A DNA stretch of 43,091 nt, from the NCBI GenBank assembly GCA_025363695.1, contig JANYDI010000058.1:1-43091 (forward strand), written 5' to 3'. Below the pieces are notes generated by a model. The model saw only the letters and a list, made by a program, of their open reading frames with translations. It was not told where the DNA came from and made no database searches. Positions 78 to 40,628 of the stretch are shown piece by piece. Made by a program: the position numbers and the translations under genes. Each line of letters opens with the position of its first letter. Positions within the stretch are counted from its first letter, which is position 1. The DNA comes from Opitutia bacterium (GTDB lineage Bacteria > Verrucomicrobiota > Verrucomicrobiia > Opitutales > JANYDI01).

Positions 78-1472
78 TTACCCTTTCGGAATAGCTTGAC
101 CGTGGGGGTCGCGGCTAGGGAAGTTGAGGGACCTGTCCAGCTCGGCAACGAGGGCGTCGCCCAAAACGTGCTCGATGGCTTCCGCGTCGTCATGGACGTG
201 ATCAGGAGCCATAGCGGCGCTGTGAGTCAGGTAGAGCTCCCAAAGGCGATGGCGGCGAATGACAGCCTGGGCGGTCTGGATGCCTGCCGGGGTAAGCTGC
301 AAAAAGCGCTCTTCCAGCGGTGCTTCGGGGTTAAGGATATCCACCAAGCCCTCTTTTTGGAAGGTTTTTATGGGCTTTGCAAGGGCGTTTGCCAGCAGCC
401 CTGAGTGGTCAGCCAAGCTTTTGAGCAAGAGGCCGTGGTCTTTGCGTTTTTCTAGCAAGGAATAGATGTGCTTGAGGGTGTTTTCCCTGTGGGCCTTGAG
501 GCGGTTTTTCCGATGACGGTAATACTGAGGCAGCCAGCCATGTAGGGGAGAAAACATAAAGGCCAGCAGGAAAAAAACGCCCAAAAAAAGGATCACGCAG
601 GGTCCTGTAGGCATTTGAGCAGCCAAAAACGAGGCAGCCGTGCCCAGCCAGCCCGATAGCAGCGCAAAGAACACGGAAAGCCCAAGCATCTTGGTAAAAG
701 AACGCGTAATCAAAAAAGCCGTAGCTCCTGGAAGCACAAACAAGGCCGACAAAAGTAGGGCCCCAACCGCTTGGAGGGCCACCACCACCGTAAAGGCCAA
801 AAGGGTAATCAAGGCCGCATTGACCCAATCCAGAGGAAGCGCCAAGCTCTGGGCAAAGGCGGGATCAAAGCTCGTTACCAGCAATTCTTTATAAAACAGA
901 CTGATGAGCAACACTAAGGCCACGAGTCCGATGGCCATCAAAGCGACATCCTGGACCCCCAAAGCTGCTGCCTGGCCAAAAAGCAGGCGATCCAACCCCG
1001 CTTTGGCCCCGGCAGGATGTTTTTGTAAGCAGCTGAGTAAAAAGGCTCCCAAGCCATAAAACCCAGACAACACCAAGGCCAAGGCAGCATCGGGCTTTAA
1101 GGGCGTATGGCGCTTGATGGCCTCAAAGACCGTAACGCCCGCCCAGGCCGCCACACTGGCGCCCAAGAGCAAGGCGACGGGGTTTTTCGTCATATTCCAG
1201 CAAAACCCCAAGACCACGCCCGGAAACACCGCATGCGCTAAGGTGTCTCCAATCAGGGCCATACGCCGCACCAGGACATAACAGCCCAGCAAGCCACATT
1301 GAACCCCCAATAGCGTAAACCCCAAAAAAGCCAGACGCAAAGTCACGTCCTGAAAACGCAGCAAGCCCAAAACCTGCTCCACAAAACCGCCTGGCGCCAC
1401 CTGCCCTATCGTCAAGGCCATCAAGGGCACAGGGCACAAAAACCACAAAAGTATTTTTTTATTCTTTAGCAC
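78..1472 (-). CDS. ytgC: ABC-3 family metal (Mn/Zn/Fe) transporter permease fused to a C-terminal DtxR/MntR-like repressor domain (YtgC-YtgR architecture)
   Basis: 464-aa ORF starting with GTG at 1472; an in-frame ATG (MALTIGQ) 17 codons downstream is an alternative start. The first ~300 aa form multiple hydrophobic helices with TroC/ZnuB/MntB-like sequence. The last ~150 aa carry an HTH plus RHRLWELYL and HDDAEAIEH motifs typical of DtxR-family metalloregulators. Confidence 0.85.
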   Translation of the reverse strand: MLKNKKILLWFLCPVPLMALTIGQVAPGGFVEQVLGLLRFQDVTLRLAFLGFTLLGVQCGLLGCYVLVRRMALIGDTLAHAVFPGVVLGFCWNMTKNPVALLLGASVAAWAGVTVFEAIKRHTPLKPDAALALVLSGFYGLGAFLLSCLQKHPAGAKAGLDRLLFGQAAALGVQDVALMAIGLVALVLLISLFYKELLVTSFDPAFAQSLALPLDWVNAALITLLAFTVVVALQAVGALLLSALFVLPGATAFLITRSFTKMLGLSVFFALLSGWLGTAASFLAAQMPTGPCVILFLGVFFLLAFMFSPLHGWLPQYYRHRKNRLKAHRENTLKHIYSLLEKRKDHGLLLKSLADHSGLLANALAKPIKTFQKEGLVDILNPEAPLEERFLQLTPAGIQTAQAVIRRHRLWELYLTHSAAMAPDHVHDDAEAIEHVLGDALVAELDRSLNFPSRDPHGQAIPKG

Positions 1473-1703: not shown

Positions 1704-2783
1704 ATGACTATAAAAGACCTAAAATGCATTTACGTATTCGCTGTATTTTTCCTGTGCTCTTGCCTCAACGCAACGGATGAAGCCCAGGATGAGCCGTTCC
1801 CGCTGGAAGCGCTCCCCAATGAGCTCATCGTCCTGGTTTATGATTTCCTTGAGCCTCAGGAAAGAATCGCTTTATCCAGCGTAAACACGCAGCTGCGCTC
1901 ATTACGGCCAGTACGAAAAATAACGGTAAAGCACATCGAAGCCCTAAGGTTGATTTTTGAAGGTGCACCAAACGAGGTGGCGTCGTATCTGGATTTTAAT
2001 GCCCTTGTTGAGTTGGATATCGATTTTATGGGAAACGACCTCTATCATGAGATTGATTTTTTAAAGCCTAGAAAAACACATATAAAGGTGCTAAGCCTGC
2101 TAAAGATGCATTTCGGGTCAGATAGTCTGCGAGTAGATAACGCGTTAGTAGCCCTGGCACCTGGATTACTAGAGCTGCAGAGAGTCCATTTTCTCCGGAC
2201 CTATATAAGCGACGAAGGCCTCATTGCCCTGGCAAAATCACCCCAATTGCAGGCCCTCAATTTGTGGAATTTCAATAAAATAACGGATGTAGGCCTAAGG
2301 ACCTTAGCCGAGTGGACACAGTTGCAGCGCCTTGATTTATCCCAGATTTCCGTCAGCGCTATCGGTCTGAGTCCCTTAAGTAGGCTCACGCAATTGCAGC
2401 ACCTCGTTTTATGCAGAACCCGCATAGATAATGCCAGCCTCGTTTACCTGGCCAAACTCACCCAATTGCAATCCCTCGACTTATTCGTCACTGAAATCAG
2501 CGATGCAGGCCTCGTTCACCTGGCAGGGTTATCGGCCTTGAAAGATCTCAATTTGAGCCGAACTTACGTAGGCGACGCAGGCCTCGTTCACCTAGCTGGG
2601 TTAACGGCCTTGAGAAGTCTTGGTTTGTCCGAAACCCGCGTAGGCGACGCAGGCCTGCCCTACCTGGTTGGGTTATCAGCTTTGCAGGCACTTAATTTGT
2701 ACTTCACCCAAGTCACCAACGCCGGCGTCGCGGCCCTCCAAGAACGCCTTCCAGGCCTAAAAATCACCCACATCACCCCATAA
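1704..2783 (+). CDS. F-box-like / leucine-rich-repeat protein (eukaryote-like, FBXL-type architecture) with hydrophobic N-terminus
   Basis: ATG start, 359 aa. The N-terminus is hydrophobic (IYVFAVFFLCSCLNA). An F-box-like motif follows (LPNELIVLVYDFLEPQERIALSSVNTQLRSL). Then come ~8 x 24-25-aa LRRs of the form LxxLxLsxTxvxDaGLvhLagLtaL. Confidence 0.8.
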   Translation: MTIKDLKCIYVFAVFFLCSCLNATDEAQDEPFPLEALPNELIVLVYDFLEPQERIALSSVNTQLRSLRPVRKITVKHIEALRLIFEGAPNEVASYLDFNALVELDIDFMGNDLYHEIDFLKPRKTHIKVLSLLKMHFGSDSLRVDNALVALAPGLLELQRVHFLRTYISDEGLIALAKSPQLQALNLWNFNKITDVGLRTLAEWTQLQRLDLSQISVSAIGLSPLSRLTQLQHLVLCRTRIDNASLVYLAKLTQLQSLDLFVTEISDAGLVHLAGLSALKDLNLSRTYVGDAGLVHLAGLTALRSLGLSETRVGDAGLPYLVGLSALQALNLYFTQVTNAGVAALQERLPGLKITHITP

Positions 2784-2787
2784 AACC

Positions 2788-3858
2788 ATGATCCTAAGAA
2801 GCATTTACGTATTCGCCGCATTTTTCCTGTGTTCTTGCCTCAACGCAACCCATGAAGCTCAGGATGAGCCGTTCCCACTCGAAACGCTCCCCAATGAGGT
2901 CATCGTGATGGTTTATGATTTCCTGAGTCCTCAGGAAACAAGGGCTTTATCCAGCGTGAATAGGCTCCTGCGTTCATTACGGCCCATACGAAAAATAACG
3001 GCAAGACAGATAGGTATACTTAGGTTGATTTTTGAAGATGCGCCGCGTGAGGTGGCGTCGTATCTGAATTTCGATTTGCTTGTTGAGCTGCATGTAAATG
3101 TTCTGACAAGGGAAATATCCAGGAGCTTTAGGGAATCAACACCTAGGGAAGCAAACATAAAAACACTGACAGTATCCTTGTTTTCAATGACAAACGAGGA
3201 CCTGGCAACCCTGGTACCTGGACTCACGCAGTTGCGAAAGCTCGGGTTATCGCGAAACGCAATAAACAATGAAGGCATCGCTCACCTGACCCAACTCACG
3301 CAGTTGCAAAATCTTGATTTATCCTGGACCTACGTAACGGATGCTGGCACCGCTTCCCTAACCCAACTCACGCAGTTGCAGAAACTCAATTTAAGTGGAT
3401 GCACCACGCTGACTGACAGCGGCATTGCTGAATTGGTAAAATTAACTCAATTGCAAAAACTCGGTATGTCCCACACCCGAGTGACCCATGTAGGCATCGC
3501 CCTCCTGGCTGCGTTAACCGCCTTGCAAAAACTCAATCTGTCTTGCACCCAAGTGACCGACGCTGAGATTATTCATCTTGTAAAATTAACTCAATTACAG
3601 AAACTCTACTTATATCACACCCAAGTGAGTGACGAGGGCCTTGCTCAGCTGACTGCGTTATCGGCTTTGCAAAAACTCAATGTGTCCGCCACCCGAGTGA
3701 GCGACGCGGGCCTCGCTCACCTGGCTGAATTAACGGCGTTATGGGAGCTCGATTTGAGTCACACCCCGACAAGCAAAGCCGGCATCGCAGCCCTTCAAGA
3801 ACACCGTCCAGGCCTGAAAATTTTATTGGGAACGCTAGATGCGATGCTCCCTTGGTAA
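2788..3858 (+). CDS. F-box-like / leucine-rich-repeat protein, tandem paralog of 1704-2783
   Basis: Starts 4 nt after the previous stop. The N-terminal ~90 aa are nearly identical to the upstream gene (IYVFAAFFLCSCLNATHEAQDEPFPLETLPNEVIV...). They are followed by ~8 LRRs (LTQLQKLNLSxTxVTDaGiaxL). Confidence 0.8.
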   Translation: MILRSIYVFAAFFLCSCLNATHEAQDEPFPLETLPNEVIVMVYDFLSPQETRALSSVNRLLRSLRPIRKITARQIGILRLIFEDAPREVASYLNFDLLVELHVNVLTREISRSFRESTPREANIKTLTVSLFSMTNEDLATLVPGLTQLRKLGLSRNAINNEGIAHLTQLTQLQNLDLSWTYVTDAGTASLTQLTQLQKLNLSGCTTLTDSGIAELVKLTQLQKLGMSHTRVTHVGIALLAALTALQKLNLSCTQVTDAEIIHLVKLTQLQKLYLYHTQVSDEGLAQLTALSALQKLNVSATRVSDAGLAHLAELTALWELDLSHTPTSKAGIAALQEHRPGLKILLGTLDAMLPW

Positions 3859-3895: not shown

Positions 3896-4594
3896 ATGCC
3901 CGAACCCGAAGAAATAAAAACCTTGTTCCAGCGTATTGCCTGGCGTTATGACCGAGCTAACACGGTCCTAAGCCTAGGACTGCACCGTTACTGGCGTTGG
4001 CGAACAGCACGGGTGGTCAAGGCCCTCAAGCCCAAGGTCGTGCTGGATATGGCCACTGGGACGGGTGATTTAGCCTTTGCCCTTGAGCGACAACTCGGGA
4101 AAACCACAAGCATTATGGGTATGGACTTTTGCGAACCCATGTTGGCCTTGGCGCGTAAAAAACAAGGGAATTCCCCTATTCCGTTTACCCTAGGCGATTG
4201 CCTAAATATTCCCCTAGATGACGGCAGTATCGACGTGGTAACTATGGCCTTTGGCTTACGGAATATTCCCCAGCGCAATAAAGCGTTTTTGGAAATCCAC
4301 CGCGTATTACGTCCTGGAGGGTTTTTGGTCCTCCTGGAGTTCAGCCAACCCAGCCGCTGGTTTGCGCCGCTGTATTGGCCGTATTTACACGCTATTTTAC
4401 CCTGGCTCTCAGGCCTCCTTACGGGCCACCAGGAAGCATATCGCTATTTGGGCCGCAGTATTGAGGGCTTTTTAAGCAAAAAAGCCCTCAGTGATGAGCT
4501 GCGTAAGCACGGCTTTGAGCCAGTAAAGGCTGTTGGGCTGTCGGCCTCCGTTGTGGCTATTCATGTAGGAAAGAAAAGGGCCAAGGGGAGCTAG
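3896..4594 (+). CDS. ubiE: Demethylmenaquinone/ubiquinone C-methyltransferase (UbiE/MenG family)
   Basis: ATG at 3896 (MPEPEEIKTLFQRIAWRYDRAN) aligns with UbiE N-termini; the track ORF start at 3839 overlaps the upstream gene. SAM-binding motif VLDMATGTGD is present, and LRPGG and LEFS motifs match the family. The stop codon lies in the loop of a repeat hairpin. Confidence 0.85.
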   Translation: MPEPEEIKTLFQRIAWRYDRANTVLSLGLHRYWRWRTARVVKALKPKVVLDMATGTGDLAFALERQLGKTTSIMGMDFCEPMLALARKKQGNSPIPFTLGDCLNIPLDDGSIDVVTMAFGLRNIPQRNKAFLEIHRVLRPGGFLVLLEFSQPSRWFAPLYWPYLHAILPWLSGLLTGHQEAYRYLGRSIEGFLSKKALSDELRKHGFEPVKAVGLSASVVAIHVGKKRAKGS

Positions 4595-4879
4595 CTCCCC
4601 TTGTATCCCCTATCGGTAGCGATTTATTAAAATGCTAGCGCATTTTAAATAAATCGCTACCGGATGGCGATACAAGGCCCCCCACAGATCGCGAAGCGAT
4701 CCGGGTGTATTTTATGAATTGCTTTGAAAGCTTGGTTTTAACGGAGGCATTTTGACGTTTAGACAAGGAAGGGAAGTGCGTAGCGCACTTTAGGTGCGTG
4801 AGTCACTTCCCTGACGCCGTATAAACTCAAAAGGCCCCGCTAAAACCAAGCTTTAGGGGCGCGAGCGCCCCCTTAGCCC
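4575..4879 (+). repeat. Composite: type-1 half + type-2 hairpin element + inverted terminal H1
   Basis: H1 4582-4603, H2 4612-4665, H3 4687-4701, type-2 hairpin 4727-4854, terminal H1 4855-4873. Same architecture as 33220-33521. Confidence 0.9.
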
Positions 4880-4898
4880 TTCCCTTTCCTCTTTTCGC

Positions 4899-5666
4899 TT
4901 GCAATTTTCAAAAACATGCACATTGTCCTTCCTTATAAAAACCTTCCTTACCCTTACGAAGCATGAGCTTTGGCAACTGATGACCTGGCCTGGGAGCTAT
5001 GCCATGGCTGCTGGATTCCTGGGCTTGATGGGTTTTTTGTTCTTTCTTGTCTTGGAACGATTTCTACATATATCTCAGAATACACCGCTTTTTGAGGGGT
5101 TTTTTGACTTGTTTTGGTTACCGGTTCTTTTTGGAGTCCCCTTGTTGACCTTACGGAGTTTTTCGCAGGAACGGCGTGAGGGGATTTTGGAAAGCGTCTT
5201 GGCAACCGGGGCCTCACTGCAGGCGCTGGTTTGGAGTAAATTTTTAGCCCTGTTTTCCTTTTACTGCCTTCTTTGGCTGCTGTGTCTGAGCTTTCCGCTT
5301 TGGATGCTGGGCGTACTGGGGCAGGCCGCACACAACCACCTCGATGTGGGTATGTTTGTTGGCAGTTACGCGTTTATCGCGCTCAGCGGAGCTTTTTACC
5401 TTTCTGTCGGGATGCTCCTTAGCAGCTTTACCGAAAACGCCACCCTCGCAGGCATGCTTACTTTCTGCGTTTTGTTTATCCTCATTGTAGGCTCGCAACT
5501 CCTTCCCCAGTCGCATCTGCTGCCCGACTGGCTTCAGGCACCTCTGCTGGTCTTGCAAAACCTGCCCCAGCTGGAGGACTTGCGGCATGGGATTTTAGAT
5601 TCCAGACCGGTAGTCTTTTACGGAAGCGGTACACTCTTATGTCTGACCCTCTGCAGGGGGCATTAG
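4899..5666 (+). CDS. ABC-2 type transporter permease (GldF-like)
   Basis: 255-aa polytopic membrane ORF. PLLTLRSFSQERREGILESVLATGAS matches the conserved ABC-2/GldF loop. There is no in-frame ATG upstream of the conserved N-terminal region, so a TTG start at 4899 or 4923 is likely. Start uncertain. Confidence 0.7.
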   Translation: MQFSKTCTLSFLIKTFLTLTKHELWQLMTWPGSYAMAAGFLGLMGFLFFLVLERFLHISQNTPLFEGFFDLFWLPVLFGVPLLTLRSFSQERREGILESVLATGASLQALVWSKFLALFSFYCLLWLLCLSFPLWMLGVLGQAAHNHLDVGMFVGSYAFIALSGAFYLSVGMLLSSFTENATLAGMLTFCVLFILIVGSQLLPQSHLLPDWLQAPLLVLQNLPQLEDLRHGILDSRPVVFYGSGTLLCLTLCRGH

Positions 5667-5670
5667 GTTT

Positions 5671-5942
5671 GCTAAGGGGCGCTTGCGCCCCTTAGGATCC
5701 CCTACAGGTAGCGATTTTGTGAAATACTACGTATTTCAGCAAAATCGCTACCTGGCAGGAAATACTAAGGCCTCCCACGATCCCGAAGGGATCCGGGAGT
5801 ATACCTTAAAATTCGATTCCGAAGGAATCTGTGGGGGGCTTAGTATCTTCTACCAGGTAGCGATTTTATTAAAATGCATCGCATTTTATAAAATCGCTAC
5901 CTGTAGGGGATCCTAAGGGGCACGAGTGCCCCTTAGCCCTTT
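5671..5942. repeat. Type-1 element, head-to-head double (giant imperfect palindrome)
   Basis: H1 5674-5693, H2 5705-5754, H3 5779-5793, H3' 5815-5829, H2' 5854-5903, H1' 5915-5934. Lies between the GldF-like and GldG-like genes. Confidence 0.9.
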
Positions 5943-7607: not shown

Positions 7608-8699
7608 ATGAATAAACGCGTCACGATCAAAGACCTGGCCCAGGAAGTTGGATTAAGCCTTGGAGCCGTTTCTCAGGCCCTTAACCCTCGAGAAAGCACC
7701 ATTAAAGTACGCGAAGAAACAATACAGCGTGTCCAAGCTGCCGCCCGGAGAATGGGCTATAGGCCTCACGCAGGGGCTAGCTCGATTCGTTCCAAGCATT
7801 TCCAAAACATTGGGTACTTCATGGCCAGTACAGGCATTCCGGACTATGAACCTGTAGGCTATTCCATAGGACTCCATGATGCTGCGCTGGAACACAATTT
7901 TCGCGTCACCTTGATCCGCTTGCCTTCGGGCAAGTTCAAAAACGCCATCTCGCGCGTCTTCAGAGAAGCCCATCTAGACGCCATGGTCATGGTGAATGCC
8001 TCCATCCTTTTTTCGGAATACAAGGACATTCTCCAAACTTCAGATTTTCCAGTCATTTATTTAAACGATAAACAGGATAATAACTCTGTCTACACCGATG
8101 ATATTTTGGGTGCCAAGCGTGCCACAGAACACTTGATCCAGCGCGGTCATCGCAGTATTTATTTTGTCAAAATCAATAATGCTCCTGTAGTAGACCTACA
8201 TTACAGCATTGCCGATCGCATCCAGGGCTACACAGAAGCCATGCATACCGCAAAGCTCAAACCCGTCATCAAAGCCTACACCTACCCGCAACAAGAAGGC
8301 CCCTTGCTTGATGAGCTTTTTGGTCGCGATAAGCCTGAGGCCATTTTAGCTTATTGCGATGCGGATGCCGCCCAGCTCCTAAAGTTTGCTTATCACCAAG
8401 GCCTTCATGCCCCTGAAGACATCGCCATTATGGGCTATAACGACGATATCTTTTCACGCCACTGCTGGGTCACCCTGTCAACCATGCACATCCCCACCTA
8501 CGATATGGCCCAGGCTGCCTTCCGCATGGTTTTAGCTCAAATTGATGAAAATAGCAACGGCCCTACCGACTCCTGCGTCTTTGTCCCAGAACTCATCGTC
8601 CGCGCTTCTACGGAAAGGGAAAAGGAAACGGAAAAGGAGAAGGAAAGGGCCAAGGGGAGCGAGCTCCCCTTGGATCCCCTACAGGTAGCGATTTTGTGA
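7608..8699 (+). CDS. LacI/GalR family transcriptional regulator
   Basis: N-terminal HTH (VTIKDLAQEVGLSLGAVSQALN) plus a periplasmic-binding-protein-like sugar-binding core. The last ~30 aa (EREKETEKEKERAKGSELPLDPLQVAIL) are translated from a purine-rich tract and a type-1 repeat. Confidence 0.85.
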   Translation: MNKRVTIKDLAQEVGLSLGAVSQALNPRESTIKVREETIQRVQAAARRMGYRPHAGASSIRSKHFQNIGYFMASTGIPDYEPVGYSIGLHDAALEHNFRVTLIRLPSGKFKNAISRVFREAHLDAMVMVNASILFSEYKDILQTSDFPVIYLNDKQDNNSVYTDDILGAKRATEHLIQRGHRSIYFVKINNAPVVDLHYSIADRIQGYTEAMHTAKLKPVIKAYTYPQQEGPLLDELFGRDKPEAILAYCDADAAQLLKFAYHQGLHAPEDIAIMGYNDDIFSRHCWVTLSTMHIPTYDMAQAAFRMVLAQIDENSNGPTDSCVFVPELIVRASTEREKETEKEKERAKGSELPLDPLQVAIL

Positions 8700-8771
8700 A
8701 ATACTGCGTATTTCAACAAAATCGCTACCTGGGTAGGCATACAAGGCCACCCTCCGGATCGCGAAGCGATC
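8644..8771 (+). repeat. Type-1 element, half copy (overlaps the lacI-family 3' end)
   Basis: H1 8652-8671, H2 8682-8731, H3 8757-8771. Preceded by a GGAAA-rich tract at 8612-8643. Confidence 0.9.
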
Positions 8772-8803: not shown

Positions 8804-9019
8804 CACATAAGGAGGCCTGAAGGGCCGGCAGATCGTAGCCCAGGGCGTAAGCCCTGGGTCCGGGATGGAAAATAAACCGGAGCCCTGTAAGGGCGGCACT
8901 AAAAATTTGAATAGGAGTGTCGCCCCTGTAGGGCTCAAAATCTTTTTTTACCGTAAACCCAGGGCTTACGCCCTGGGCTGTCATCTGCCGGCCCTTCAGG
9001 CCTCCTTAAGTGTGGTTTG
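8804..9019. mobile_element. Foldback MITE core, CACATAAGGAGGCC-arm subtype
   Basis: ~58-bp arms (CACATAAGGAGGCCTGAAGGGCCGGCAGAT.GTAGCCCAGGGCGTAAGCCCTGGG and its complement) around an inner hairpin GAGCCCTGTAAGGGCGGCAC...GTGTCGCCCCTGTAGGGCTC. Confidence 0.85.
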
Positions 9020-9090
9020 TTGTTATACAAAAAATACAATACGATCATTTTGGTGTGATTGCCCCTTGGCCGCCGAAGCCTTTAGGCGTA

Positions 9091-9138
9091 GGCTGGCTGA
9101 CAAGCATTCGCCCCTTCAGGGCTCTCATTTTGTGGTTT
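9091..9138. repeat. Solo arm of the ACAAAATGAGAGCCC-arm foldback subtype, preceded by a ~30-nt GCCGCCGAAGCC mini-hairpin module
   Basis: GGCTGACAAGCATTCGCCCCTTCAGGGCTCTCATTTTGTGGTTT equals the right arm of the element at 37471-37828. The mini-hairpin module is at 9062-9095. Confidence 0.7.
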
Positions 9139-9186
9139 GAATAAATAATTACATCGAATAGAATTCAACTCAAAGAGATTAAAGTC

Positions 9187-9319
9187 GATCCCTTCGGGAT
9201 CTGTGGGGCGCCTTAGTATATACTTCCCGATAGGCAATTTTACCAAAATGCGCTAGCATTTTGTAAAATTGCCTATCGGAAAGGGGATCCTAAGGGGAGC
9301 GAGCTCCCCTTGGCCCTTT
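9187..9319 (-). repeat. Type-1 element, half copy
   Basis: H3 9187-9201, H2 9227-9279, H1 9292-9311, followed by a pyrimidine-rich tail to 9355. Confidence 0.9.
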
Positions 9320-9355
9320 TCTTCCCCTTCCTTCCTTCTCGCTTCTCCTTTCCGT

Positions 9356-11431: not shown

Positions 11432-11606
11432 GGGGTGTGAAGAATTAATAATATAACTATTTATTTAAAACCACAAAATGAGAGGCCTGAAGGGGCGAAT
11501 GCTTGTCAGCCCAGGGCTCTCATTTTGTGGTTTGTTTTTAAATAATTATTTATCAACCCTAACGGATCCCTTAAAACAGGTTTTAAACTTAATGGTTCAC
11601 GCACCC
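11432..11606. mobile_element. Foldback MITE with collapsed interior; TA on both flanks
   Basis: TA 11430-11431, left TIR GGGGTGTGAAGAATTAA, collapsed inner hairpin 11467-11533, right TIR ...GGTTCACGCACCC, TA 11607-11608. Confidence 0.8.
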
Positions 11607-11775: not shown

Positions 11776-11933
11776 ATCCCTTCGGAATCGAAATCAATGT
11801 ACCCCCGGATCGCTTCGCGATCTGTGGGGGGCTTAGTATCCCTCCCCGATAGCGATTTTTATAAAATGCTTTGCATTTTTAAAAATCGCTATCGGAGGGG
11901 ATCCTAAGGGGCGCAAGCGCCCCTTAGCCCTTA
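11776..11933 (-). repeat. Type-1 element, half copy plus remnant of a second H3
   Basis: H3 remnant 11776-11790, H3 11808-11822, H2 11846-11895, H1 11906-11925. Confidence 0.85.
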
Positions 11934-13131: not shown

Positions 13132-13260
13132 AAGGGCTAAGGGGCGCTTGCGCCCCTTAGGATCCCCTACCGATAGGCGATTTTCAAAAATGCTAGCGCA
13201 TTTTATAAAAATCGCCTATCGGGAAGGTATACTAAGCCCCCTCCGGATCGCTTCGCGATC
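13132..13260 (+). repeat. Type-1 element, half copy
   Basis: H1 13139-13158, H2 13170-13222, H3 13246-13260. Preceded by GAAGGGAAAGTAAAGGGAAGGG. Confidence 0.9.
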
Positions 13261-13264: not shown

Positions 13265-13561
13265 AAACAAAATATGGTTATGTATTTATTCAAACCACAC
13301 ATAAGGAGGCCTGAAGGGCCGGCAGATACGTAGCCCAGGGCGTAAGCCCTGGGTTTATGGGTGAAAAAGATTTTGAGCCCTACAGGGGCGACACTCACAC
13401 TTTCTGAAATTTTCTTGAGTGCCGCCCTTACAGGGCTCTGGTCTATTTTCCATGCCAAACCCAGGGCTTACGCCCTGGGCTACGATCTGCCGGCCCTTCA
13501 GGCCTCCCATAGTGTGATTTGAATGAATGACTTAAGCTTAAACTAAAATGAGGACACGCCC
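13265..13561. mobile_element. Foldback MITE, CACATAAGGAGGCC-arm subtype (left TIR missing)
   Basis: Foldback core 13282-13521. Right linker and TIR ...GAGGACACGCCC end at 13561, followed by TA 13562-13563. Confidence 0.85.
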
Positions 13562-13769: not shown

Positions 13770-14060
13770 ATGTGAACAATTAAGCTATCCAACAAACCAC
13801 ACATAAGGAGGCCTGAAAGGCCGGCAGATATGTAGCCCAGGGCGTAAGCCCTGGGTCTGTAGGTTAAAAAAGATTTAGAGCCCTACAGGGGCGACACTCA
13901 CACTTTCTGAAATTTTCTTAAGTGCCGCCCTTGCAGGGCTCAGGTTTATTTTCCAACCAAAACCCAGGGCTTACGCCCTGGGCTACATATCTGCCAGCCT
14001 TTCAGGCCTCCTTAAGTGCGTTTTAAATAAATAGTTATATTATTATTTGATCACAGCGCC
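13770..14060. mobile_element. Foldback MITE, CACATAAGGAGGCC-arm subtype, near full length; TA on both flanks
   Basis: TA 13768-13769, partial left TIR ATGTGAACAATTAA, foldback core ~13795-14018, right TIR TTATTTGATCACAGCGCC ending at 14060, TA 14061-14062. Confidence 0.85.
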
Positions 14061-14907: not shown

Positions 14908-15035
14908 GATCCCGAAGGGATCTGAGACGGCCTTAGTATGTCCTCCCAGGGTGCGATTTTATTAAAATGCATCGCATTTTATAAAATCGCACCCTGTAGG
15001 GGATCCTAAGGGGTGCCAGCACCCCTTAGCCCTTT
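14908..15035 (-). repeat. Type-1 element, half copy
   Basis: H3 14908-14922, H2 14948-14997, H1 15008-15027. Confidence 0.9.
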
Positions 15036-16847: not shown

Positions 16848-16862
16848 AAGTGTTAATGCTAA

Positions 16863-17137
16863 GGCCAAGGGGAACTCGTTCCCCTTGGGATCCCCTTTCC
16901 GATAGGCGATTTTTAAAAATGCTGGTGCATTTTATAAAAATCGCCTATCGGGAAGGATATACTAAGGCCCCCACAGATCGCTTCGCGATCCGGGTGTACG
17001 CTTATCTCGATCCCGAAGGGATCTGTGGGGTGCCTTGTATCACCCTCCCCGATAGCGATTTACTTAAAATGCGCTAGCATTTTAATAAATCGCTATCGGA
17101 AAGGGGATCCAAGGGGACAGCGTCCCCTTGGCCCTTT
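16863..17137. repeat. Type-1 element, head-to-head double
   Basis: H1 16867-16886, H3 16976-16990, H3' 17009-17023, H1' 17111-17129, with an H2 hairpin in each half. Confidence 0.9.
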
Positions 17138-17160: not shown

Positions 17161-18537
17161 ATGACCCTAGAACATGAAACACCGGCAGCACCGGCGGGGC
17201 GTGTTTTGCCGCACGACGTTGTGGCGGAGCGTGCCCTGCTGGGGGCCTGCATCTTGGAGGGGGGACAGGAGATGCTGGCGCGCTGCATAGAGGCGCGCTT
17301 GGTCCCGGAGTCATTTTTGAAGGGGAGCCACCAGAGTGTTTATAAGGCCTTGGTAGCGCTTTATGACGTGGGGACGCCGATTGACGACATTACCTTGGCC
17401 AATCAGCTGCAAAAACAGGGGGATTTTGAACGCGTGGAGGGCCATGCGGGGATCAATGCCTTGACGCAGTGGATTGAGACGACGGGGCATGCTCCGTATT
17501 ATTTGCAAATTGTCCGGGATAAATACCTATTGCGGCGCTTGATTCGTACCGCTTCCAAGACGGTAGAAAATTGTTACAGTCAGCAAAATAGCCTAGAGCA
17601 TTTTTTGGAGGAGGTAGAGCAGGAATTTTTCAAAATCAGCGAAGATCGTATTTCGGAGAGCGCCAAGCACGTCAAGGATTCGGTCGACCAAGTCGTGAGC
17701 TTGGTTTATCAGCTGATTGAGCAAAAAAAGCCCAATCATGGGATTTTGAGCGGCTTCAAGGACCTGGACTCGATGACCTTTGGCTTTCATCCGCAGGAAA
17801 TGATCGTGTTGGCGGCGCGGCCTTCCGTGGGGAAAACAGCTTTTGCGATGAATCTAGCTGAAAACGTAGTGGTGCCGCCTGGGCAGCGGGTAAAGCCAGC
17901 AGCCACGCTTGTTTTTAGTTTGGAAATGAACACGGAGTCCTTGGCCATGCGCTTGCTTTCGAGCCATGCACGGATCAACATGAAGCGCATGCGCGATGGT
18001 TTTTTGAGCAATGAGGAAAAAACGGATATGCTCAAGGCCGCTAAACGCCTGAAAGAAGCGCCGTTGTGGATCGATGACTCAGGGGGGCTGAATATTTTGG
18101 AGCTTCGAGCCAAGGCGCGGCGTTTTAAGTCTCGGATGGATTTGGGCCTGATTATTATCGATTATTTGCAATTGATTTCAGGCACGGACAGCAGAACGCC
18201 GCGTGAGCAGCAAATATCCGAGATTTCACGAAGTATCAAGGCGATGGCTAAGGAGCTCAATGTCCCGATCGTCGTACTCAGCCAGCTCAACCGCGATTCT
18301 GAAAGAGAAAAACGCGAGCCCCGTCTTTCTGACTTGCGTGAATCCGGTTCCATCGAACAAGATGCCGATGTTGTCTGCATTCTGCATCGCGTCGGCAATG
18401 GATCCTCCGAGGAAACCCCCTCCGACGATCAATCCGAGCGCATCGATTTGGTCATTGCTAAGCAACGTAACGGCCCCACCGGAAAGGTAGGCCTCGTATT
18501 TAACAGGAATTATACGCGTTTTGAAAGTTTAGGCTAA
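17161..18537 (+). CDS. dnaB: Replicative DNA helicase DnaB
   Basis: ATG at 17161. Motifs: PHDVVAERALLG, Walker A ARPSVGKT, IIIDYLQL, SQLNR. The stop TAA (18535-18537) is the TAA inside the repeat tip GGCTAAGGGG. Confidence 0.95.
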   Translation: MTLEHETPAAPAGRVLPHDVVAERALLGACILEGGQEMLARCIEARLVPESFLKGSHQSVYKALVALYDVGTPIDDITLANQLQKQGDFERVEGHAGINALTQWIETTGHAPYYLQIVRDKYLLRRLIRTASKTVENCYSQQNSLEHFLEEVEQEFFKISEDRISESAKHVKDSVDQVVSLVYQLIEQKKPNHGILSGFKDLDSMTFGFHPQEMIVLAARPSVGKTAFAMNLAENVVVPPGQRVKPAATLVFSLEMNTESLAMRLLSSHARINMKRMRDGFLSNEEKTDMLKAAKRLKEAPLWIDDSGGLNILELRAKARRFKSRMDLGLIIIDYLQLISGTDSRTPREQQISEISRSIKAMAKELNVPIVVLSQLNRDSEREKREPRLSDLRESGSIEQDADVVCILHRVGNGSSEETPSDDQSERIDLVIAKQRNGPTGKVGLVFNRNYTRFESLG

Positions 18538-18769
18538 GGGGCACAAGTGCCCCTTAGGATCCCCTTTCCGATGGGCAATTTTTAAAATACTACGTATTTA
18601 TAAAAATTGCCCATCGGGAACGGAAATACTAAGCCCCTCCACGATCGCGAAGCGATCAAGGGGGTGCCTTGTATCCTGCTACCCAGTAGCGATTTTCCTA
18701 AAATGCGTGCATTTTAGAAAATCGCTACTGGTAGGGGATCCAAGGGGAGCGAGCTCCCCTTGGCCCTTT
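18531..18769. repeat. Type-1 element, head-to-head double with a single central H3
   Basis: H1 18536-18555, central H3 18643-18657, H1' 18742-18761. A pyrimidine-rich stutter tail runs 18770-18820. Confidence 0.9.
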
Positions 18770-18820
18770 ATTTTATTTTCCTTTACTTTCCCTTATTTTC
18801 CCCTATTTTACTTTACTTTT

Positions 18821-21166: not shown

Positions 21167-21412
21167 GGGCAAGGGGCTAAGGGGCACTCGTGCCCCTTAG
21201 GATCCCCTTCCGATGGGCAATTTTTAAAATACTACGTATTTATAAAAATTGCCCATCGGGTAGGGCATGCTAAGGTCTTCGCCGATCGCAAAGCGATCTG
21301 TGGGGCGCCTTGTATCACCTTTTTCGGTAGCGATTTATCTAAAATGCGTCAGCATTTTAATAAATCGTTACCGATAGGGGATCCAAGGGGTGCGAGCACC
21401 CCTTGGCCCTTT
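21165..21412. repeat. Type-1 element, head-to-head double with a single central H3
   Basis: The tip is duplicated (AAGGGCAAGGGGCTAAGGGG). H1 21179-21198, H3 21284-21298 (AAA loop), H1' 21385-21404. Confidence 0.9.
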
Positions 21413-22335: not shown

Positions 22336-22878
22336 ATGAAATTTGGCAAAAAGTACTGGTTTTTTGCAGGCCTCATGGCCTATGTCTTGAGTGTGTCTAC
22401 GTTGGGGGCAAAAAAGTCTTGGCTTGATGAGGCAACGGCTAGTGAGAGAGATCCTCAAGCTAAACGTTTTATTCAGGAGCCCAAAAACACACAGACGCCT
22501 TACGATTTGTATGCCAAAAACAAGGGCCGCTGGCAGTCTATGGTGATTGATCCCCAGAAGCGTTATGCTCCAGAAATTTTGATTGCCAAAGTGGATGCTT
22601 CAAACCTGAGGCGTTTGGTCCATGATTTGGAGCGATTTGCACCCGTATTTTATCCACGGGGTGTTACGGATCTGATTATTGTTATTAAGCCCAGTAGGCT
22701 ACCCAAGAAAGAGGGCAAGCATTTTGACTTTGAGTGGACTTATTTGCTTGAAAAACTGCGAGTAAAGACGATTGAGTTGAAGGACGATAGCCATGGCTGC
22801 GTCTGTGATTCTGAACATATAGGTCCGATTAGGGGTGCCTATTGGTTTAGAGGTTCCATTAAGAGGGTGACCTGGTAG
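22336..22878 (+). CDS. Hypothetical secreted protein (one copy of a novel ~130-aa domain)
   Basis: 180 aa with a signal-peptide-like N-terminus (KKYWFFAGLMAYVLSVSTLGA). The domain IQEPKNTQTPYDLYAKN..W...RYAPEILIAKVDASNLRRLVHDLERFAPVFYPRGV is shared with the next gene. Confidence 0.6.
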   Translation: MKFGKKYWFFAGLMAYVLSVSTLGAKKSWLDEATASERDPQAKRFIQEPKNTQTPYDLYAKNKGRWQSMVIDPQKRYAPEILIAKVDASNLRRLVHDLERFAPVFYPRGVTDLIIVIKPSRLPKKEGKHFDFEWTYLLEKLRVKTIELKDDSHGCVCDSEHIGPIRGAYWFRGSIKRVTW

Positions 22879-22895: not shown

Positions 22896-24131
22896 ATGGT
22901 GATGAATATAAAAAAATACTGGTTTTTTTCAGGCCTCGTGGCCTACGTCCTGAGCCTGTCTGTGTTGGGGGCTGACATCGATACGGATTGGGCGGTTTAC
23001 ACGACCAAGCCCTTTAAGCACTGGTCTGATCTTTCTAGCGATAACCAGCTTAAATCTCTTATTCAGGAGCCCAAAACCACCGATACGCCTTACGATTTTT
23101 ATGCCAGAAATAACGGCTCCTGGCAGCCTATAGATATATGTATCAATTCTCATGAGCGTTATGCTCCAGAAGTCTTAATTGCCAAAGTAGATGCTCGAAA
23201 CTTGCGTGGCTTGTTCCATGATTTGGAACAGTTTGCTCACGTGTTTCATCCACGCGGCGTCATGCATTTGGTCATTGTTACTCAGTTGAATGGGCTTCCT
23301 AAAGATTTTGACATCGATAGGCTTTTTTCAAAAACAGGAGCTGTATCGGTAGAATTACTGGAGTATGGCAAGGGTGTTATCTCTAAGGGGAATCTACCTT
23401 ACACGAGCAGCTATGGTCCTATGGGGGTCATCAGGCCTAATATGCCTTCGGAATTTTTTCCAGACAGGAGCCCACAGTCTAAGAAGGATTTTCCAGCTCC
23501 TCCTGAAGAACCTCGCAAGAAGAATCGTCAAGAGGATCACGAGAAACGTTACGAGGACTACAAGAAGCGTTACGAGGACTACAAGGAGCGAGTTAAGCTG
23601 CACAAAGAAAAAAGAAAAAATTATGAACATTCTCCTAATGGCTTCGTCCATAAATGGCCCTCTAAAGAGGGCCGGGATTTAGTAGCGCTCATGGCGTCCA
23701 AGAAAGTGAGTGTTGAGCCTTGGGATGTCTACCGTTACGATCTTAACCAAAAGGCTTGGCATTTGTTACCTTTAACTAAAGATGGCGTGGCGGGTTCAAA
23801 GAACCTTTTGGTCAAAACAGATCAGCTCGATAAGCTTTTGGATACGTTTTTTCCTTCTGGGGTTAAGCGCTTAAATGTCGTTGTTGAAAATACGTCTGGG
23901 CGCTTTGCTCAGGGGGCAAAGCACTCTAAGGTCTTTGCTGATCGTTTATCGCGCTATGCAAAACGCTTGGGAGCCGAGTCTGTTCAGCTTATTTTCAAAA
24001 ATGGCAAAAATAGTCATGTTTACGAGTACTTTAGGAATGGGGGGGTTTGGGGTTCTGATGAAGCCTTAGGAGATGTTGCTTGTTGGATCTTGTTTTACGC
24101 AAAGCTCGATGCCCATCGAGGTCAGGCATAA
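22896..24131 (+). CDS. Hypothetical secreted protein, tandem paralog with two copies of the same domain separated by a charged KRYEDYK repeat linker
   Basis: 411 aa with the same signal-like N-terminus and the same domain. The central linker is EDHEKRYEDYKKRYEDYKERVKLHKEKRKNYEH. A second, diverged domain copy sits at the C-terminus. Confidence 0.6.
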   Translation: MVMNIKKYWFFSGLVAYVLSLSVLGADIDTDWAVYTTKPFKHWSDLSSDNQLKSLIQEPKTTDTPYDFYARNNGSWQPIDICINSHERYAPEVLIAKVDARNLRGLFHDLEQFAHVFHPRGVMHLVIVTQLNGLPKDFDIDRLFSKTGAVSVELLEYGKGVISKGNLPYTSSYGPMGVIRPNMPSEFFPDRSPQSKKDFPAPPEEPRKKNRQEDHEKRYEDYKKRYEDYKERVKLHKEKRKNYEHSPNGFVHKWPSKEGRDLVALMASKKVSVEPWDVYRYDLNQKAWHLLPLTKDGVAGSKNLLVKTDQLDKLLDTFFPSGVKRLNVVVENTSGRFAQGAKHSKVFADRLSRYAKRLGAESVQLIFKNGKNSHVYEYFRNGGVWGSDEALGDVACWILFYAKLDAHRGQA

Positions 24132-24163
24132 AAATCCAAAGCTACGTCGCGCCAAGAGCTCCG

Positions 24164-24276
24164 GACTCCTTCGAAATCTTCCCGATGGGCAATTTTATCA
24201 AAATGCGCTTGCGCATTTTGTAAAATTGCCCATCGGAAGGGGATCCTAAGGGGCACGAGTGCCCCTTAGCCCTTAT
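24164..24276 (-). repeat. Type-1 element, half copy with degenerate H3
   Basis: Degenerate H3 24164-24178, H2 24182-24236, H1 24249-24268. Confidence 0.85.
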
Positions 24277-25965: not shown

Positions 25966-26063
25966 AATCCCCTACAGGGTGCGATTTATTAAAATACTAC
26001 GTATTTATAATAAATCGCACCCTGGTAGGCTATGCTAAGGCCCATCCAGATCGCTTCGCGATC
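25936..26063 (+). repeat. Type-1 element, half copy (overlaps the recN 3' end)
   Basis: H1 25944-25963, H2 25975-26024, H3 26049-26063. Confidence 0.9.
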
Positions 26064-28497: not shown

Positions 28498-28768
28498 GGT
28501 TTTAGCGGGCTATTCTGGGTTGATGCTTCGTCATGGAAGTGACTCACGCACCGTAGTGCGCTACGCACTTCCCTTCCTTGCCTGAACCAAGAATAGCCCG
28601 CTAAAACCGGCTCAAAGCACGTCTTCCCAATTTCCCGGATCGCTTCGCGATCTGTGAGGGTCTTAGTATCCACCTACCCCGATAGCGATTTTGCCAAAAT
28701 ACGTAGTATTTTGCAAAATCGCTATCGGAAAGGGGATCCTAAGGGGCGCAAGCGCCCCTTGGCCCTTT
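28498..28768 (-). repeat. Composite: type-2 hairpin element + type-1 half
   Basis: Type-2 28498-28608, H3 28638-28652, H2 28679-28728, H1 28741-28760. Confidence 0.9.
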
Positions 28769-29752: not shown

Positions 29753-30127
29753 ATGACCGTTATGAAAAATCAAAACATTATTATACTGGGAGTGCATCTC
29801 CCCCTTACCGAGGCGATAAAGAACACGGTTCATGAAAAAGTACAGCGTTTATTTCATCATGAAGCCCGTATTCTTAGAATCAGAATCGAGCTGACTAAAG
29901 ATTCCTGCGAAAAACGCGAGGACAATTTCTGCGCCTGTGGTATTATTGAAATCAATGGCCCTAATTTGGTTGTGAAAGAAAAAAGTGGCGACCTTTACAA
30001 GTCCATAGACCGCATGGTGGATAAGCTGGACCGCAAACTCAACCAACGCGCTCGGCTTATCCGCGTGAAACGCCACTACCTACATCCCATAGATTTATCA
30101 TGCTCCCTCCCGAAGGTTGGGGTTTAG
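29753..30127 (+). CDS. hpf: Ribosome hibernation promoting factor / RaiA (short HPF, S30AE family)
   Basis: IIILGVHLPLTEAIKNTVHEKVQRL...DLYKSIDRMVDKLDRKLNQ matches the S30AE fold pattern. ATG at 29753, or alternatively 29762. The stop lies inside a type-2 hairpin element. Confidence 0.85.
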   Translation: MTVMKNQNIIILGVHLPLTEAIKNTVHEKVQRLFHHEARILRIRIELTKDSCEKREDNFCACGIIEINGPNLVVKEKSGDLYKSIDRMVDKLDRKLNQRARLIRVKRHYLHPIDLSCSLPKVGV

Positions 30128-30388
30128 CGGGTTATTTTGGGTTGATGCTGCGTCGCTGCAGCCCTCGAGTGCAGAAGCACACGTCGGGCTTAGCTCCTTG
30201 CCTGAACCCAAAATTCCTCCGCTAAACCCCAACCTTCCAAGGCAATTCAAAAAACATTCGATCGCGATACAATCTGTGGGGTGCCTTGTATACCTACTCC
30301 CGATAGCGATTTATCTAAAATGCGTTAGCATTTTAATAAATCGCTATCGGAAAGGGGATCCAAGGGGAGCAAGCTCCCCTTGGCCCTT
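30114..30388 (-). repeat. Composite: type-2 hairpin element (alternative core) + type-1 half
   Basis: Type-2 variant 30114-30236, degenerate H3 ~30259-30274, H2 30300-30350, H1 30362-30381. Confidence 0.85.
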
Positions 30389-33273: not shown

Positions 33274-33521
33274 AAATGCAAAGCATTTTGTAAAAATCGC
33301 TACCCGGTAGCATATACTAAGGCCCCCACAGATCGCGAAGCGATCCGAGTGTATCTTATGAATTGCTTCGAGCCGGTTTTAGGGGAGGCATTGGGGGTTC
33401 AGGCAAGGAAGGGAAGTGCGTAGCGCACTTAAGGTGCGTGAGTCACTTCCATTCCGCAGCATCAACCCCCAATGTGCCCCTAAAACCATCCTAAGGGGAG
33501 CGAGTGCCCCCTTAGCCCTTT
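33220..33521 (+). repeat. Composite: type-1 half + type-2 hairpin element + inverted terminal H1
   Basis: H1 33225-33244, H2 33257-33306, H3 33331-33345, type-2 33375-33487, H1' 33493-33513. Confidence 0.9.
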
Positions 33522-36196: not shown

Positions 36197-36208
36197 TACT
36201 TCAGGCCA

Positions 36209-38922: not shown

Positions 38923-38956
38923 TAACCCCAATCCCCCCCTTTTATTGACAGCAACC

Positions 38957-40609: not shown

Positions 40610-40628
40610 AGGAAGTGAAGGGAAGTTT

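Follow-up and report, generated by a model that had tools for sequence, protein, structure and literature searches.

The BIMEs of Escherichia coli and the BOX elements of Streptococcus pneumoniae are mosaics of short modules, which occur in variable arrangements and are found between the genes of operons. BIMEs alternate two types of REP sequences with short linkers, and BOX elements have the composition A-Bn-C and are not palindromic overall. The Correia elements of Neisseria, the ERIC/IRU and RUP elements and the Rickettsia palindromic elements (RPEs) are 100 to 300 bp long, carry inverted-repeat ends, are intergenic and co-transcribed, and can alter the ends of genes. Such bacterial MITEs (miniature transposable elements with inverted repeats) and RPEs are abundant in host-associated bacteria. 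The REPIN/RAYT systems of Pseudomonas and Enterobacteria comprise extragenic, non-coding palindromes with a high copy number (PMC3116915, PMC3337134). A family of repeats similar to these systems, referred to as type-1 elements, is present in a stretch of 43,091 nucleotides of an Opitutia bacterium (Verrucomicrobiota, Opitutales; assembly GCA_025363695.1, contig JANYDI010000058.1), which was analysed over its whole length and is called the window in the following; the element at positions 5666-5942 serves as the focal copy. The type-1 element is a multi-copy, non-coding palindrome, which was gained in this lineage and whose local hairpins are strongly constrained. Type-1 elements probably constitute a lineage-specific family of small, non-coding and non-autonomous mobile elements of the MITE/REPIN-like kind and are classified here as a new family within a known kind, the interspersed palindromic non-autonomous elements.

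A type-1 half unit contains three hairpins, H1, H2 and H3, and a profile made from the aligned copies was run against the 43,091-nt window. It identified 28 half units with E <= 1e-19 as well as two lone H1 tips, and the profile search of the window revealed no further degenerate copies. The half units occur in three arrangements, namely 12 halves, six doubles and four composites. An earlier description made from the letters alone, the sequence-only reading, had counted around 30 H1 and 28 H2 hairpins by hand and had proposed the same 12, six and four arrangements, which exactly matches the profile census. It had also placed the repeats in almost every intergenic region; indeed, at least one type-1 copy is found in 20 of the 26 intergenic regions that are longer than 30 bp. 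The half units account for 3765 bp, which corresponds to 8.7% of the window; of the intergenic DNA, type-1 elements occupy about 40%, and repeats are estimated to make up around two thirds of the intergenic DNA once two other families are added. In total, the window contains around 30 H1, 28 H2 and only 22 physical H3 hairpins, since a single central H3 is common to both halves in four doubles. The H1 motif AAGGGG-N8-CCCCTT is present 27 times, while 0.01 copies are expected from shuffled sequences; with a loop of N4-10, 29 H1 hairpins are found in addition to one degenerate tip (4856-4875). The H3 pattern GATCNC-N3-GNGATC occurs 20 times with an expectation of 0. Twenty-seven complete copies can be aligned end to end over approximately 130 nt, with a mean pairwise identity of 72% and a maximum of 91%. 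A double has a size of 240 to 280 bp, is found in multiple copies and is non-coding, as its AT-rich H2 contains stop codons in most reading frames.

The half unit starts with the tip AAAGGGC, which is followed by H1, the linker GGATCCCCT, H2, the sequence ATACTAAGGCCCC and H3; the conserved sequence ends 7 to 8 nt outside of H1, at (A)AAGGGC. The focal double (5666-5942) is of the two-H3 type and has the order tip-H1-linker-H2-L2-H3-spacer-H3'-L2'-H2'-linker'-H1'-tip. Its H1 (5672-5695; CTAAGGGG-CGC-TT-GCG-CCCCTTAG) is a GC-rich, subterminal hairpin around 7 nt from the end. The nearly invariant linker GGATCCCCT (5695-5703, plus strand) holds a GATC and precedes H2 (5705-5754), a hairpin of around 23 bp and 50 nt with a GC foot, an AT middle, a bulge in the 3' arm and a GC-clamped loop of 3 to 4 nt. 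The adjacent L2 (5755-5778, plus strand; ..ATACTAAGGCC(N)CCAC), which in single-H3 doubles extends the H3 stem by pairing with its mirror copy, leads to the H3 mini-hairpin GATCCC-GAA-GGGATC (5779-5793). A spacer of 21 nt separates this H3 from the mirror-image half, which consists of a second H3 (5815-5829; GATTCC-GAA-GGAATC), H2' (5854-5903; copy u5934m) and H1' with the right tip GCCCTTT (5913-5942). Both halves match the profile, with E values of 9e-34 and 2e-35.

Across the family, H2 is built from a GC-rich foot, an AT-rich stretch, a 1-nt bulge in the 3' arm, six to seven further pairs and a loop of 3 to 4 nt. The single bulged base on the 3' arm is found in 26 of the 27 aligned copies, and for the remaining one, u13139p, RNAfold draws a small internal loop at the position of the bulge. 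A recurrent bulge or mismatch of 1 nt had been noted before; the irregularity is real, and it can now be specified as a bulge of the 3' arm. In four of the six doubles (18528-18769, 21171-21412, 34248-34505 and 40628-40874), a single H3 is located at the exact centre, and the other two doubles contain two H3 hairpins, which are around 20 bp apart. Because four of the six doubles hold a single H3 at their exact centre, the full element is read as one palindrome of approximately 240 to 280 bp with five hairpins, the apex of which is H3 and whose H1 tips point outward. The doubles had initially been described as head-to-head; they are in fact arranged tail-to-tail with the tips outward. When the half units are oriented, roughly every second one shows the H3 loop GAA and the others show TTC, since one hairpin is read from either side of the palindrome.

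Within the doubles, the two arms are only 65 to 80% identical; each local hairpin, however, is nearly perfect. As DNA, a heterodimer double folds into the five separate hairpins H1, H2, L2-H3-L2', H2' and H1' (-77.6 kcal/mol, z = -13). The focal double, which is unusually symmetric and shows an identity of 0.75 to its own reverse complement, can also fold into one giant hairpin (-181 kcal/mol, z = -19.8). The H3 core GCGAAGC is presumably the classic, extraordinarily stable DNA mini-hairpin, a suggestive similarity, and in the central position it could be well suited to nucleate the folding of the palindrome. The elements contain 65 GATC sites, which corresponds to 17.3 per kb, compared to 3.0 per kb outside. 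These sites stem from the GGATCC linker and both arms of H3, and outside of the elements, GATC is mildly under-represented with 119 sites versus 153 expected from the base composition.

For the analysis of covariation, the three-hairpin structure was imposed on the alignment of the 27 copies, and column shuffles and slid partners were used as controls. Stem positions are paired in 98.1% of all cases, in comparison to 86.5% in the column shuffles and 34 to 47% when the partners are slid. Changes on both sides were observed for 20 of 41 base pairs, a number that was reached by none of 500 shuffles, and covarying pairs are also found in the inner part of H1 (columns 15/22 and 16/21). RNAalifold recovered the same three hairpins without a given structure, with 19 compensatory pairs. 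When the H2 arms are exchanged between copies, the mean folding energy is -18.2 kcal/mol, as compared to -31.2 kcal/mol for the native hairpins. In comparisons of one copy with another, both partners of a pair differ in 2235 cases and only one differs in 567, whereas independence predicts 470 and 4098, respectively; as the copies share ancestry, these counts do not represent independent events. With a divergence of 0.187 versus 0.341, stems change about half as fast as unpaired positions. Thus, hairpin structure rather than sequence is preserved across the type-1 copies, and the earlier claim that the two arms always change together is confirmed by the paired fraction, the two-sided changes and the weaker H2 hairpins after arm exchange. 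Double changes in DNA palindromes can result from template switching as well as from selection. The asymmetry of G·U wobbles was also considered to distinguish RNA from DNA, but was rejected because a U·G that recurs beside the bulge of H2 vanishes if the bulge is shifted by one position.

The sequence-only reading had proposed a comparison of orthologous sites, and two relatives with the same gene order were found via DnaB: contig L015, the DnaB of which is 80% identical, and contig L016 with 69% identity. The rplY-pth junction comprises 42 bp in L015 and 34 bp in L016 and is empty in both, while it has a size of 107 bp and holds a half unit in the window. Likewise, the rplI-dnaB junction is empty in the relatives (42 and 28 bp) and is filled with a double in the window (around 280 bp). 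The genes dnaB and bamA overlap in L015 and are separated by only 10 bp in L016, again without an element, in comparison to around 240 bp with a double in the window. As three junctions are empty in L015 and L016, the type-1 elements are lineage-specific insertions; this evidence is derived from a comparison between lineages with two relatives and not between strains, and it supports mobility. The two relatives possess DnaB proteins with the C-termini ..YTRFENLSKSDAHA (..FENLSKSDAHA) and ..YTRFENFAY*, and DnaB of the window ends with ..YTRFESLG*, the TAA stop codon of which lies inside the tip of an element. Judged from these C-termini, the type-1 element has rewritten the end of DnaB.

Copies outside of the window, which the sequence-only reading had suggested to look for, are present on three short contigs of the metagenome-assembled genome (MAG) JANXME01. 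Among the matches listed, these contigs carry four true copies with H1, linker, H2 and H3, all of which are located at, or within around 80 bp of, contig ends. One of them, on contig L006, is 84% identical over approximately 250 bp to the composite at 33220-33520. JANXME01 carries the label Actinomycetes; either its binning or its label is probably wrong. No transposase was found on the three short contigs. Exact-protein look-ups yielded only short Logan contigs of the same strain, which stem from the samples SRR23617308 and SRR20627849 and match the window with 100% identity. Most ends of these four contigs lie inside of elements or at their tips, with the far end of L021 being located in coding sequence. 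The start of the window falls within a type-1 copy, and its end lies in a repeat region of another family, the Acido-Lenti-type elements described below. Assemblers typically break at high-copy repeats, and contig breaks inside the elements fit this behaviour.

Other searches were negative. In JGI metagenomes, a strict pattern gave no match and a relaxed pattern gave three matches, none of which is a true copy; a pattern scan of IMG/VR revealed no type-1 copies, and blastn searches against plasmids and phages yielded no type-1 match. A 571-aa concatenate of element translations was compared to 5.8 billion proteins without any match at E <= 0.001. Rfam contains no type-1 family, and only sub-threshold matches to generic microRNA-hairpin models were obtained; a description of the family was not found in the literature either. 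That the repeats belong to no named family, as had been stated before, is in line with the lack of an Rfam family and of plasmid or phage matches. A scan of a genome collection for H1 plus linker revealed, among the matches listed, ten look-alikes of the form CCAAGGGG..CCCCTTGGATCCCC from unrelated phyla. GC hairpins of this form, which were noted on L003, L005, L009-L013 and L017-L019, are often located inside arrays of other small hairpins. The look-alikes were rejected as widespread relatives since the extra CC/GG only extends the stem and was forced by the pattern, and none of the ten is accompanied by H2 or H3. The type-1 family appears to be confined to this lineage. L015, which lacks type-1 elements, has repeats of its own, which combine a GC hairpin with an AT-rich hairpin (e.g., TCAAGGGGCGGGCCCCTTG..TTTTAAAAAAGG) and are found at positions 1-90, 1524-1700 and 8171-8202, that is, at the contig ends and upstream of rplY; a weak match to the type-1 profile was obtained at 20-85 (nhmmer, E 1.7e-4). 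Based on this resemblance, the L015 repeats may be a diverged cousin family.

In the window, type-1 elements are closely associated with the ends of genes. The stop codons of 11 of 34 genes are located 0 to 64 nt inside an element, with all three reading frames being used, and in six further genes, a tip starts 2 to 37 nt after the stop codon. Overall, 17 of the 34 gene 3' ends are capped by an H1 tip, which lies within 40 nt or overlaps the stop codon. All four convergent gene pairs carry elements with the tips toward the gene ends, and tips almost always face genes, while the H3 side is oriented toward the intergenic interior. Copies were also found between co-directional, tightly linked genes (ABC-2 permease/GldG-like, rplI/dnaB and dnaB/bamA), as the sequence-only reading had stated when it placed elements inside operons. 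The many stop codons inside or just before elements indicate that the elements landed at, and often just inside, the ends of genes and that the copies in operons are tolerated. Open reading frames (ORFs) end inside repeats at positions 4594, 5666, 8699, 18537, 25965, 28739, 30344, 33273, 34460, 39077 and 40810, and the upstream-most ORF starts (GTG/TTG) at 15013, 17128, 18707, 24259 and 34264 lie inside repeats as well. The true start of bamA is probably the ATG near 18821, ahead of a signal-peptide-like sequence. The four top terminator-like matches of the window consist of an outward-reading H1 followed by CCCTTTAYTT; the overall number of terminator-like sites is 29 versus 27.4 in shuffles, and inward-facing H1 hairpins lack a U tract. 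The non-coding flanks are purine-rich on the strand that reads into the element, with 37 AAGG sequences versus 8.9 expected and a single CCTT. Outside of the tips, degenerate AAGG- or AAAGGG-type runs and degenerate tip repeats (e.g., 8605-8644, 9320-9355, 18770-18820 and 30389-30400) as well as a (GGGAAA)8 microsatellite (42200-42247) can be found. These purine runs may have arisen by slippage at the tip, may be what earlier copies left behind or may represent a target that is preferred by the element.

Besides the focal copy, the second double with two H3 hairpins fills the rplI-dnaB gap (16859-17137). The doubles with one central H3 are found between dnaB and bamA (18528-18769, H3 at 18643-18657), where the left tip provides the stop codon of dnaB, between bamA and pilD (21171-21412, H3 at 21284-21298), at 34248-34505 (H3 at 34361-34375), with a 17-nt insertion in the loop of the right H2 and the iPGM stop codon in the right arm, and between murJ and hisS (40628-40874, H3 at 40746-40760), where the hisS stop codon lies 64 nt inside the element. 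The half units on the plus strand are located at 1518-1644 (profile E 1e-34), 8645-8771, 13132-13260, where two Acido-Lenti-type elements follow, 25937-26063 with the recN stop codon inside H1, 37297-37428 and 42242-42370, the latter being preceded by (GGGAAA)n at 42200-42247. On the minus strand, half units are found at 3-75, which is cut by the contig start and has its tip 2 nt from the stop codon of ytgC-dtxR, 9187-9318, 11808-11932 (profile match), 14908-15034, which fills the entire rplY-pth gap, 24147-24274 with a degenerate H3, and 38957-39116 with H3 at 38957-38971 and the murJ stop codon in the H1 region. The half units at 8645-8771 and 9187-9318 form the left and right arm of a pair, which brackets 0.4 kb of Acido-Lenti-type elements, and those at 37297-37428 and 38957-39116 bracket 1.6 kb of nested repeats of the same family. 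Both pairs look like doubles that were split by nested insertion, and the halves mostly look like the outer remnants of split or truncated doubles.

Another repeat, element X, is a palindrome of approximately 125 bp, which carries a GC hairpin in its centre and has the ends GGTTTTAGCGGG..CCCGCTAAAACC. In the four composites, X is nested beside the type-1 H3 (copies at 4745-4850, 28498-28608, 30114-30230 and 33372-33487), and a solo copy is present at 36204-36318; the copy at positions 1-110 of L006 is 95.7% identical to the latter. The four composites with a second hairpin family had already been recognised from the sequence and are real, and it can be added that X is a separate element, which also occurs on its own. 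The composites at 28498-28767 and 30114-30388 consist of element X followed by a half unit on the minus strand (28638-28767 and 30260-30388). The composites at 4576-4881 and 33220-33520 contain a half unit, which spans 33220-33345 in the second of them, element X and a lone inverted H1 tip (4853-4881 and 33488-33520, respectively). This variant, which is also found on L006, keeps both H1 tips and only one H2 and H3, and its copies share 83 to 84% identity. From its recurrence it follows that the variant propagated as one unit with an H1 tip on either side, which is the best indication for a role of the H1 tips as cis-acting ends.

The second co-resident family consists of palindromic elements of around 245 bp, the ends of which correspond to 14 matches to the Rfam motif Acido-Lenti-1 (RF01687) in inverted pairs. 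Each end contains a GTAG-tagged, REP-like hairpin of the form GTAGCCCAGGGC-GTAA-GCCCTGGG. Copies are located at 8808-9032, 13289-13534, 13791-14038, 37541-37790, 37840-38086, 38704-38950, 42534-42830 and 42900-43091 (partial), and remnants at 9089-9152 and 11465-11518. Apart from one tRNA, Acido-Lenti-1 on these non-type-1 repeats is the only Rfam match at the gathering score in the window. In this window, the motif has the appearance of an end module of REPIN/MITE-like elements and not of an independent gene for a small RNA.

The REPIN-like or MITE-like nature proposed by the sequence-only reading is supported by the non-coding repeats, the inverted doubles and the empty orthologous sites. 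Type-1 elements would have spread within the chromosome of a Verrucomicrobiota bacterium related to Opitutae, inserting at the boundaries of genes and frequently within the final codons. The full element would be delimited by the ends AAAGGGC[Y]AAGGGG..CCCCTT, and halves would represent the outer arms that were left once nested small palindromes had split the centre of a double or one arm had been lost. Mobilisation probably occurs in trans by a protein that is encoded elsewhere and recognises the folded hairpins on single-stranded DNA (ssDNA), and the likeliest candidate would be a transposase of the HUH/Y1 kind, either a RAYT or one of the IS200/IS605 type. In this process, the H1 tips may act as the minimal cis-acting ends, and the bulged H2 may serve recognition or stability. 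If the competence to transpose was selected for and long perfect palindromes were selected against, this could explain local hairpins that are near-perfect in doubles whose arms differ by 20 to 35%. An enzyme of the HUH/Y1 type is favoured for several reasons. Target-site duplications do not exceed chance, as the longest string common to both flanks has a length of 3.6 versus 3.7 in mismatched-pair controls; the terminal hairpins are subterminal; the asymmetric bulge is kept in nearly every H2; local hairpins and not the long-range symmetry are conserved; and a GTAG-tagged, REP-like family shares the intergenic regions. Furthermore, Opitutus terrae, which belongs to the phylum Verrucomicrobia, was reported to be rich in GTAG REPs (PMC3733652).

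Several observations speak against this model. The window contains no transposase or RAYT, so that no autonomous partner can be tied to the element ends. As no two copies are more than 91% identical, nothing shows recent activity, and since other samples of the strain are 100% identical, there is no population-level support in the form of presence/absence differences. H1 and H3 carry neither a GTAG nor a CGTC tag, H2 is about two times as large as a REP, and the G(A/T)TAG that it contains is base-paired instead of forming a free tail. The near-perfect stems at 72% identity could also reflect host selection or correction by template switching. Finally, a 2-bp TA duplication would be masked, as the tip (T)TTAAAGGGC is palindromic at this position, and would point to a DDE enzyme. 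Type-1 elements would then be classical MITEs, i.e., deletion derivatives of a DDE-type insertion sequence (IS), which move as double-stranded DNA by means of a transposase for which the terminal inverted repeats with H1 serve as binding sites and which generates a very short duplication such as TA (IS630/Tc1-mariner). The clear terminal inverted repeats, the typical MITE size, the nested insertions, which are also seen in other MITE-rich genomes, and variants that keep the same ends despite differing interiors, as in MITE families, would all be in agreement with this origin, and TA is indeed found just outside A(0-3)GGGC at both ends of five of the six doubles. However, the TA may equally belong to the tip sub-families AGTTTAAGGGC and AAAGTAAAGGGC, from the sequence of which it is not separable. 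In addition, no flank duplication is longer than expected by chance, DDE transposases do not need three covarying internal hairpins or a conserved bulge, and no IS is present in the window. A DDE-derived MITE is an unlikely, if reasonable, explanation.

The position of the elements could alternatively reflect a use by the host as gene-boundary punctuation, for instance as hairpins at 3' ends by which transcripts are stabilised or attenuated, as bidirectional terminators of convergent genes or as sites for nucleoid or methylation proteins, with mobility being historical. The H1 tips at 17 of 34 gene 3' ends, the elements in all four convergent pairs with tips facing the gene ends, the four top terminator-like matches formed by outward H1 and CCCTTTAYTT, the conservation of stems despite 28% sequence divergence and the density of GATC (17.3 versus 3.0 per kb) could be explained in this way. 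Such a role would not account for relatives that lack the elements at the same junctions, and both orientations occur, also inside operons of essential genes. Moreover, terminator-like sites are hardly more frequent than in shuffles (29 versus 27.4), a transcript that comes from a gene meets an H1 without U tract, and the H1 and H3 loops are found in both flipped states, which argues against a strand-specific RNA signal. Host punctuation is judged to be highly improbable as an explanation of the family; a primary host function is less likely, while secondary effects on transcripts are plausible in view of the terminator-like outward H1 with CCCTTTAYTT. Another conceivable scenario combines punctuation and spread: the elements would be self-maintaining, structured gene-boundary punctuation, the H1 tips of which serve as the general 3'-end or insulator signal of the lineage, with hairpins kept by selection or hairpin-templated correction and spread by an enzyme or a cruciform/ssDNA process undescribed for bacterial repeats. 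This scenario is doubtful and at best a long shot. It could finally be argued that the elements are not mobile at all and represent an old intergenic motif, which was spread or homogenised by recombination or gene conversion or was lost in the sampled relatives; the lack of identical copies and of a transposase in the window as well as the weakly similar hairpin repeats elsewhere in L015 (nhmmer E 1.7e-4) would fit. However, gain is by far the more parsimonious assumption when compared to independent losses from three tight junctions in both relatives, which would have had to leave spacers of 10 to 42 bp; the DnaB C-terminus is displaced, copies contain the ends of 11 ORFs with all three frames being used, and a copy diversity with 72% mean identity is the opposite of homogenisation, leaving very little room for a non-mobile origin.

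The window represents one complete NCBI contig, and its genes are ordinary chromosomal genes, including rplY-pth-rpsF-ssb-rplI-dnaB-bamA, recN, lgt, hisS, murJ and iPGM, an ABC-2 permease with a GldG-like partner, two F-box/leucine-rich repeat (LRR) proteins and a YtgC-DtxR fusion. DnaB is at most 58 to 60% identical to named proteins of Opitutales/Verrucomicrobiota. None of the ORFs in the window encodes a transposase, RAYT or integrase, which bears out the corresponding statement of the sequence-only reading. The F-box/LRR proteins are encoded by two adjacent paralogues at 1704-3858, in which the F-box is followed by leucine-rich repeats with a DNA period of 72 nt, and which are 82% identical over 300 nt. 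Eukaryote-like domains of this kind are typically found in bacteria living together with or inside eukaryotic cells. They hint at a eukaryote-associated lifestyle, with which the proliferation of repeats in symbionts would be in line. The fusion gene (78-1472, minus strand) combines an ABC-3 metal-transporter permease with a C-terminal, iron-dependent repressor domain of the DtxR type, an architecture that is best known from YtgC-YtgR of Chlamydia. A lone gene at 11962-13116 matches the phage Mu portal protein over its full length (PF06074, E 4e-55); other phage genes were not found nearby, and a type-1 tip is present on each side. In two adjacent hypothetical genes of 180 and 411 aa without Pfam match, 222 nt are 77% identical (22469-22684 versus 23059-23280), and the two genes are thus partial paralogues.

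If the window is typical, the genome would contain around 650 half units per Mb and would thus be a very repeat-dense bacterial genome; to our knowledge, this density is above that of classical REP families. Type-1 elements break short-read assemblies, and contig ends coincide with elements or other repeats. They also mislead gene callers, and automatic annotation will carry repeat-encoded extensions. As the co-resident family illustrates, what is listed in Rfam as Acido-Lenti-1 RNA can form the hairpin at the end of a palindromic repeat. The 27 diverged copies with 20 covarying pairs and a near-universal bulge represent a natural data set on the upkeep of hairpins in mobile palindromes, and the hairpins provide a defined substrate for finding the responsible enzyme.

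Type-1 elements share a number of properties with REPINs, in which two inverted hairpin units and a spacer form a larger hairpin and singlets are remnants of doublets. Similarly, the inverted type-1 doubles fold, and split doubles were found at 8645/9318 and 37297/39116. REPINs generate no target duplications, and none above chance was found for type-1 elements; in both families, structure is kept while the sequence drifts. The REPIN transposase is a single gene located elsewhere in the genome; for type-1 elements, a mover acting in trans may be assumed, and no RAYT has been linked to them. In contrast to a single REP of 20 to 40 nt, the type-1 unit has a size of approximately 125 nt and contains three different hairpins, with H1 forming the ends. 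H1 and H3 are untagged, and the foot of the roughly 50-nt H2, G(A/T)TAG (or GATGG, GGGTG), is paired and variable. Lacking a free GTAG or CGTC tag and having a unit of three times the size, type-1 elements do not qualify as REPs. The REP dimers with GTAG or CGTC tags, including those of Opitutus terrae, a member of the same phylum, show insertions that reach into ORFs, occur head-to-head and tail-to-tail with a predominance of heterodimers and can have structured spacers (Di Nocera et al. 2013, PMC3733652). Type-1 elements are similar in these respects, but lack the unpaired tetranucleotide tag; a GTAG in combination with a hairpin is instead carried by the Acido-Lenti-type family. The TIRYT motif GGGGWSAS (PMC3733652) was also compared to H1 and was rejected as it fits one H1 copy only. 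With regard to the IS200/IS605 type, type-1 elements have subterminal hairpins and no duplication above chance; a fixed flanking tetranucleotide was not found, and the flanks are purine-rich.

As in MITEs, type-1 elements are small, non-coding and present in multiple copies, inverted AAAGGGCYAAGGGG..CCCCTT tips are found on the doubles and on two composites, and filled as well as empty sites exist. Correia elements and RUPs are characterised by TA duplications and known IS ends; there is no such evidence for type-1 elements. Like RPEs, type-1 copies contribute codons to ORFs; however, RPEs insert in frame within genes, whereas type-1 elements replace 0 to 21 C-terminal codons. The modular build, the variable arrangements and the positions between operon genes are reminiscent of BIMEs and BOX elements, to which no sequence relation exists; the type-1 element is one palindrome centred on a mini-hairpin. 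The mobile GC-cluster and double-hairpin elements of fungal mitochondria also saturate compact intergenic DNA, have compensated stems and are not known to have a dedicated transposase; they are organellar, much shorter and unrelated in sequence, and the comparison is an analogy only. Noteworthy features of the type-1 family are the architecture with five hairpins, the density of the copies and the quality of the covariation signal.

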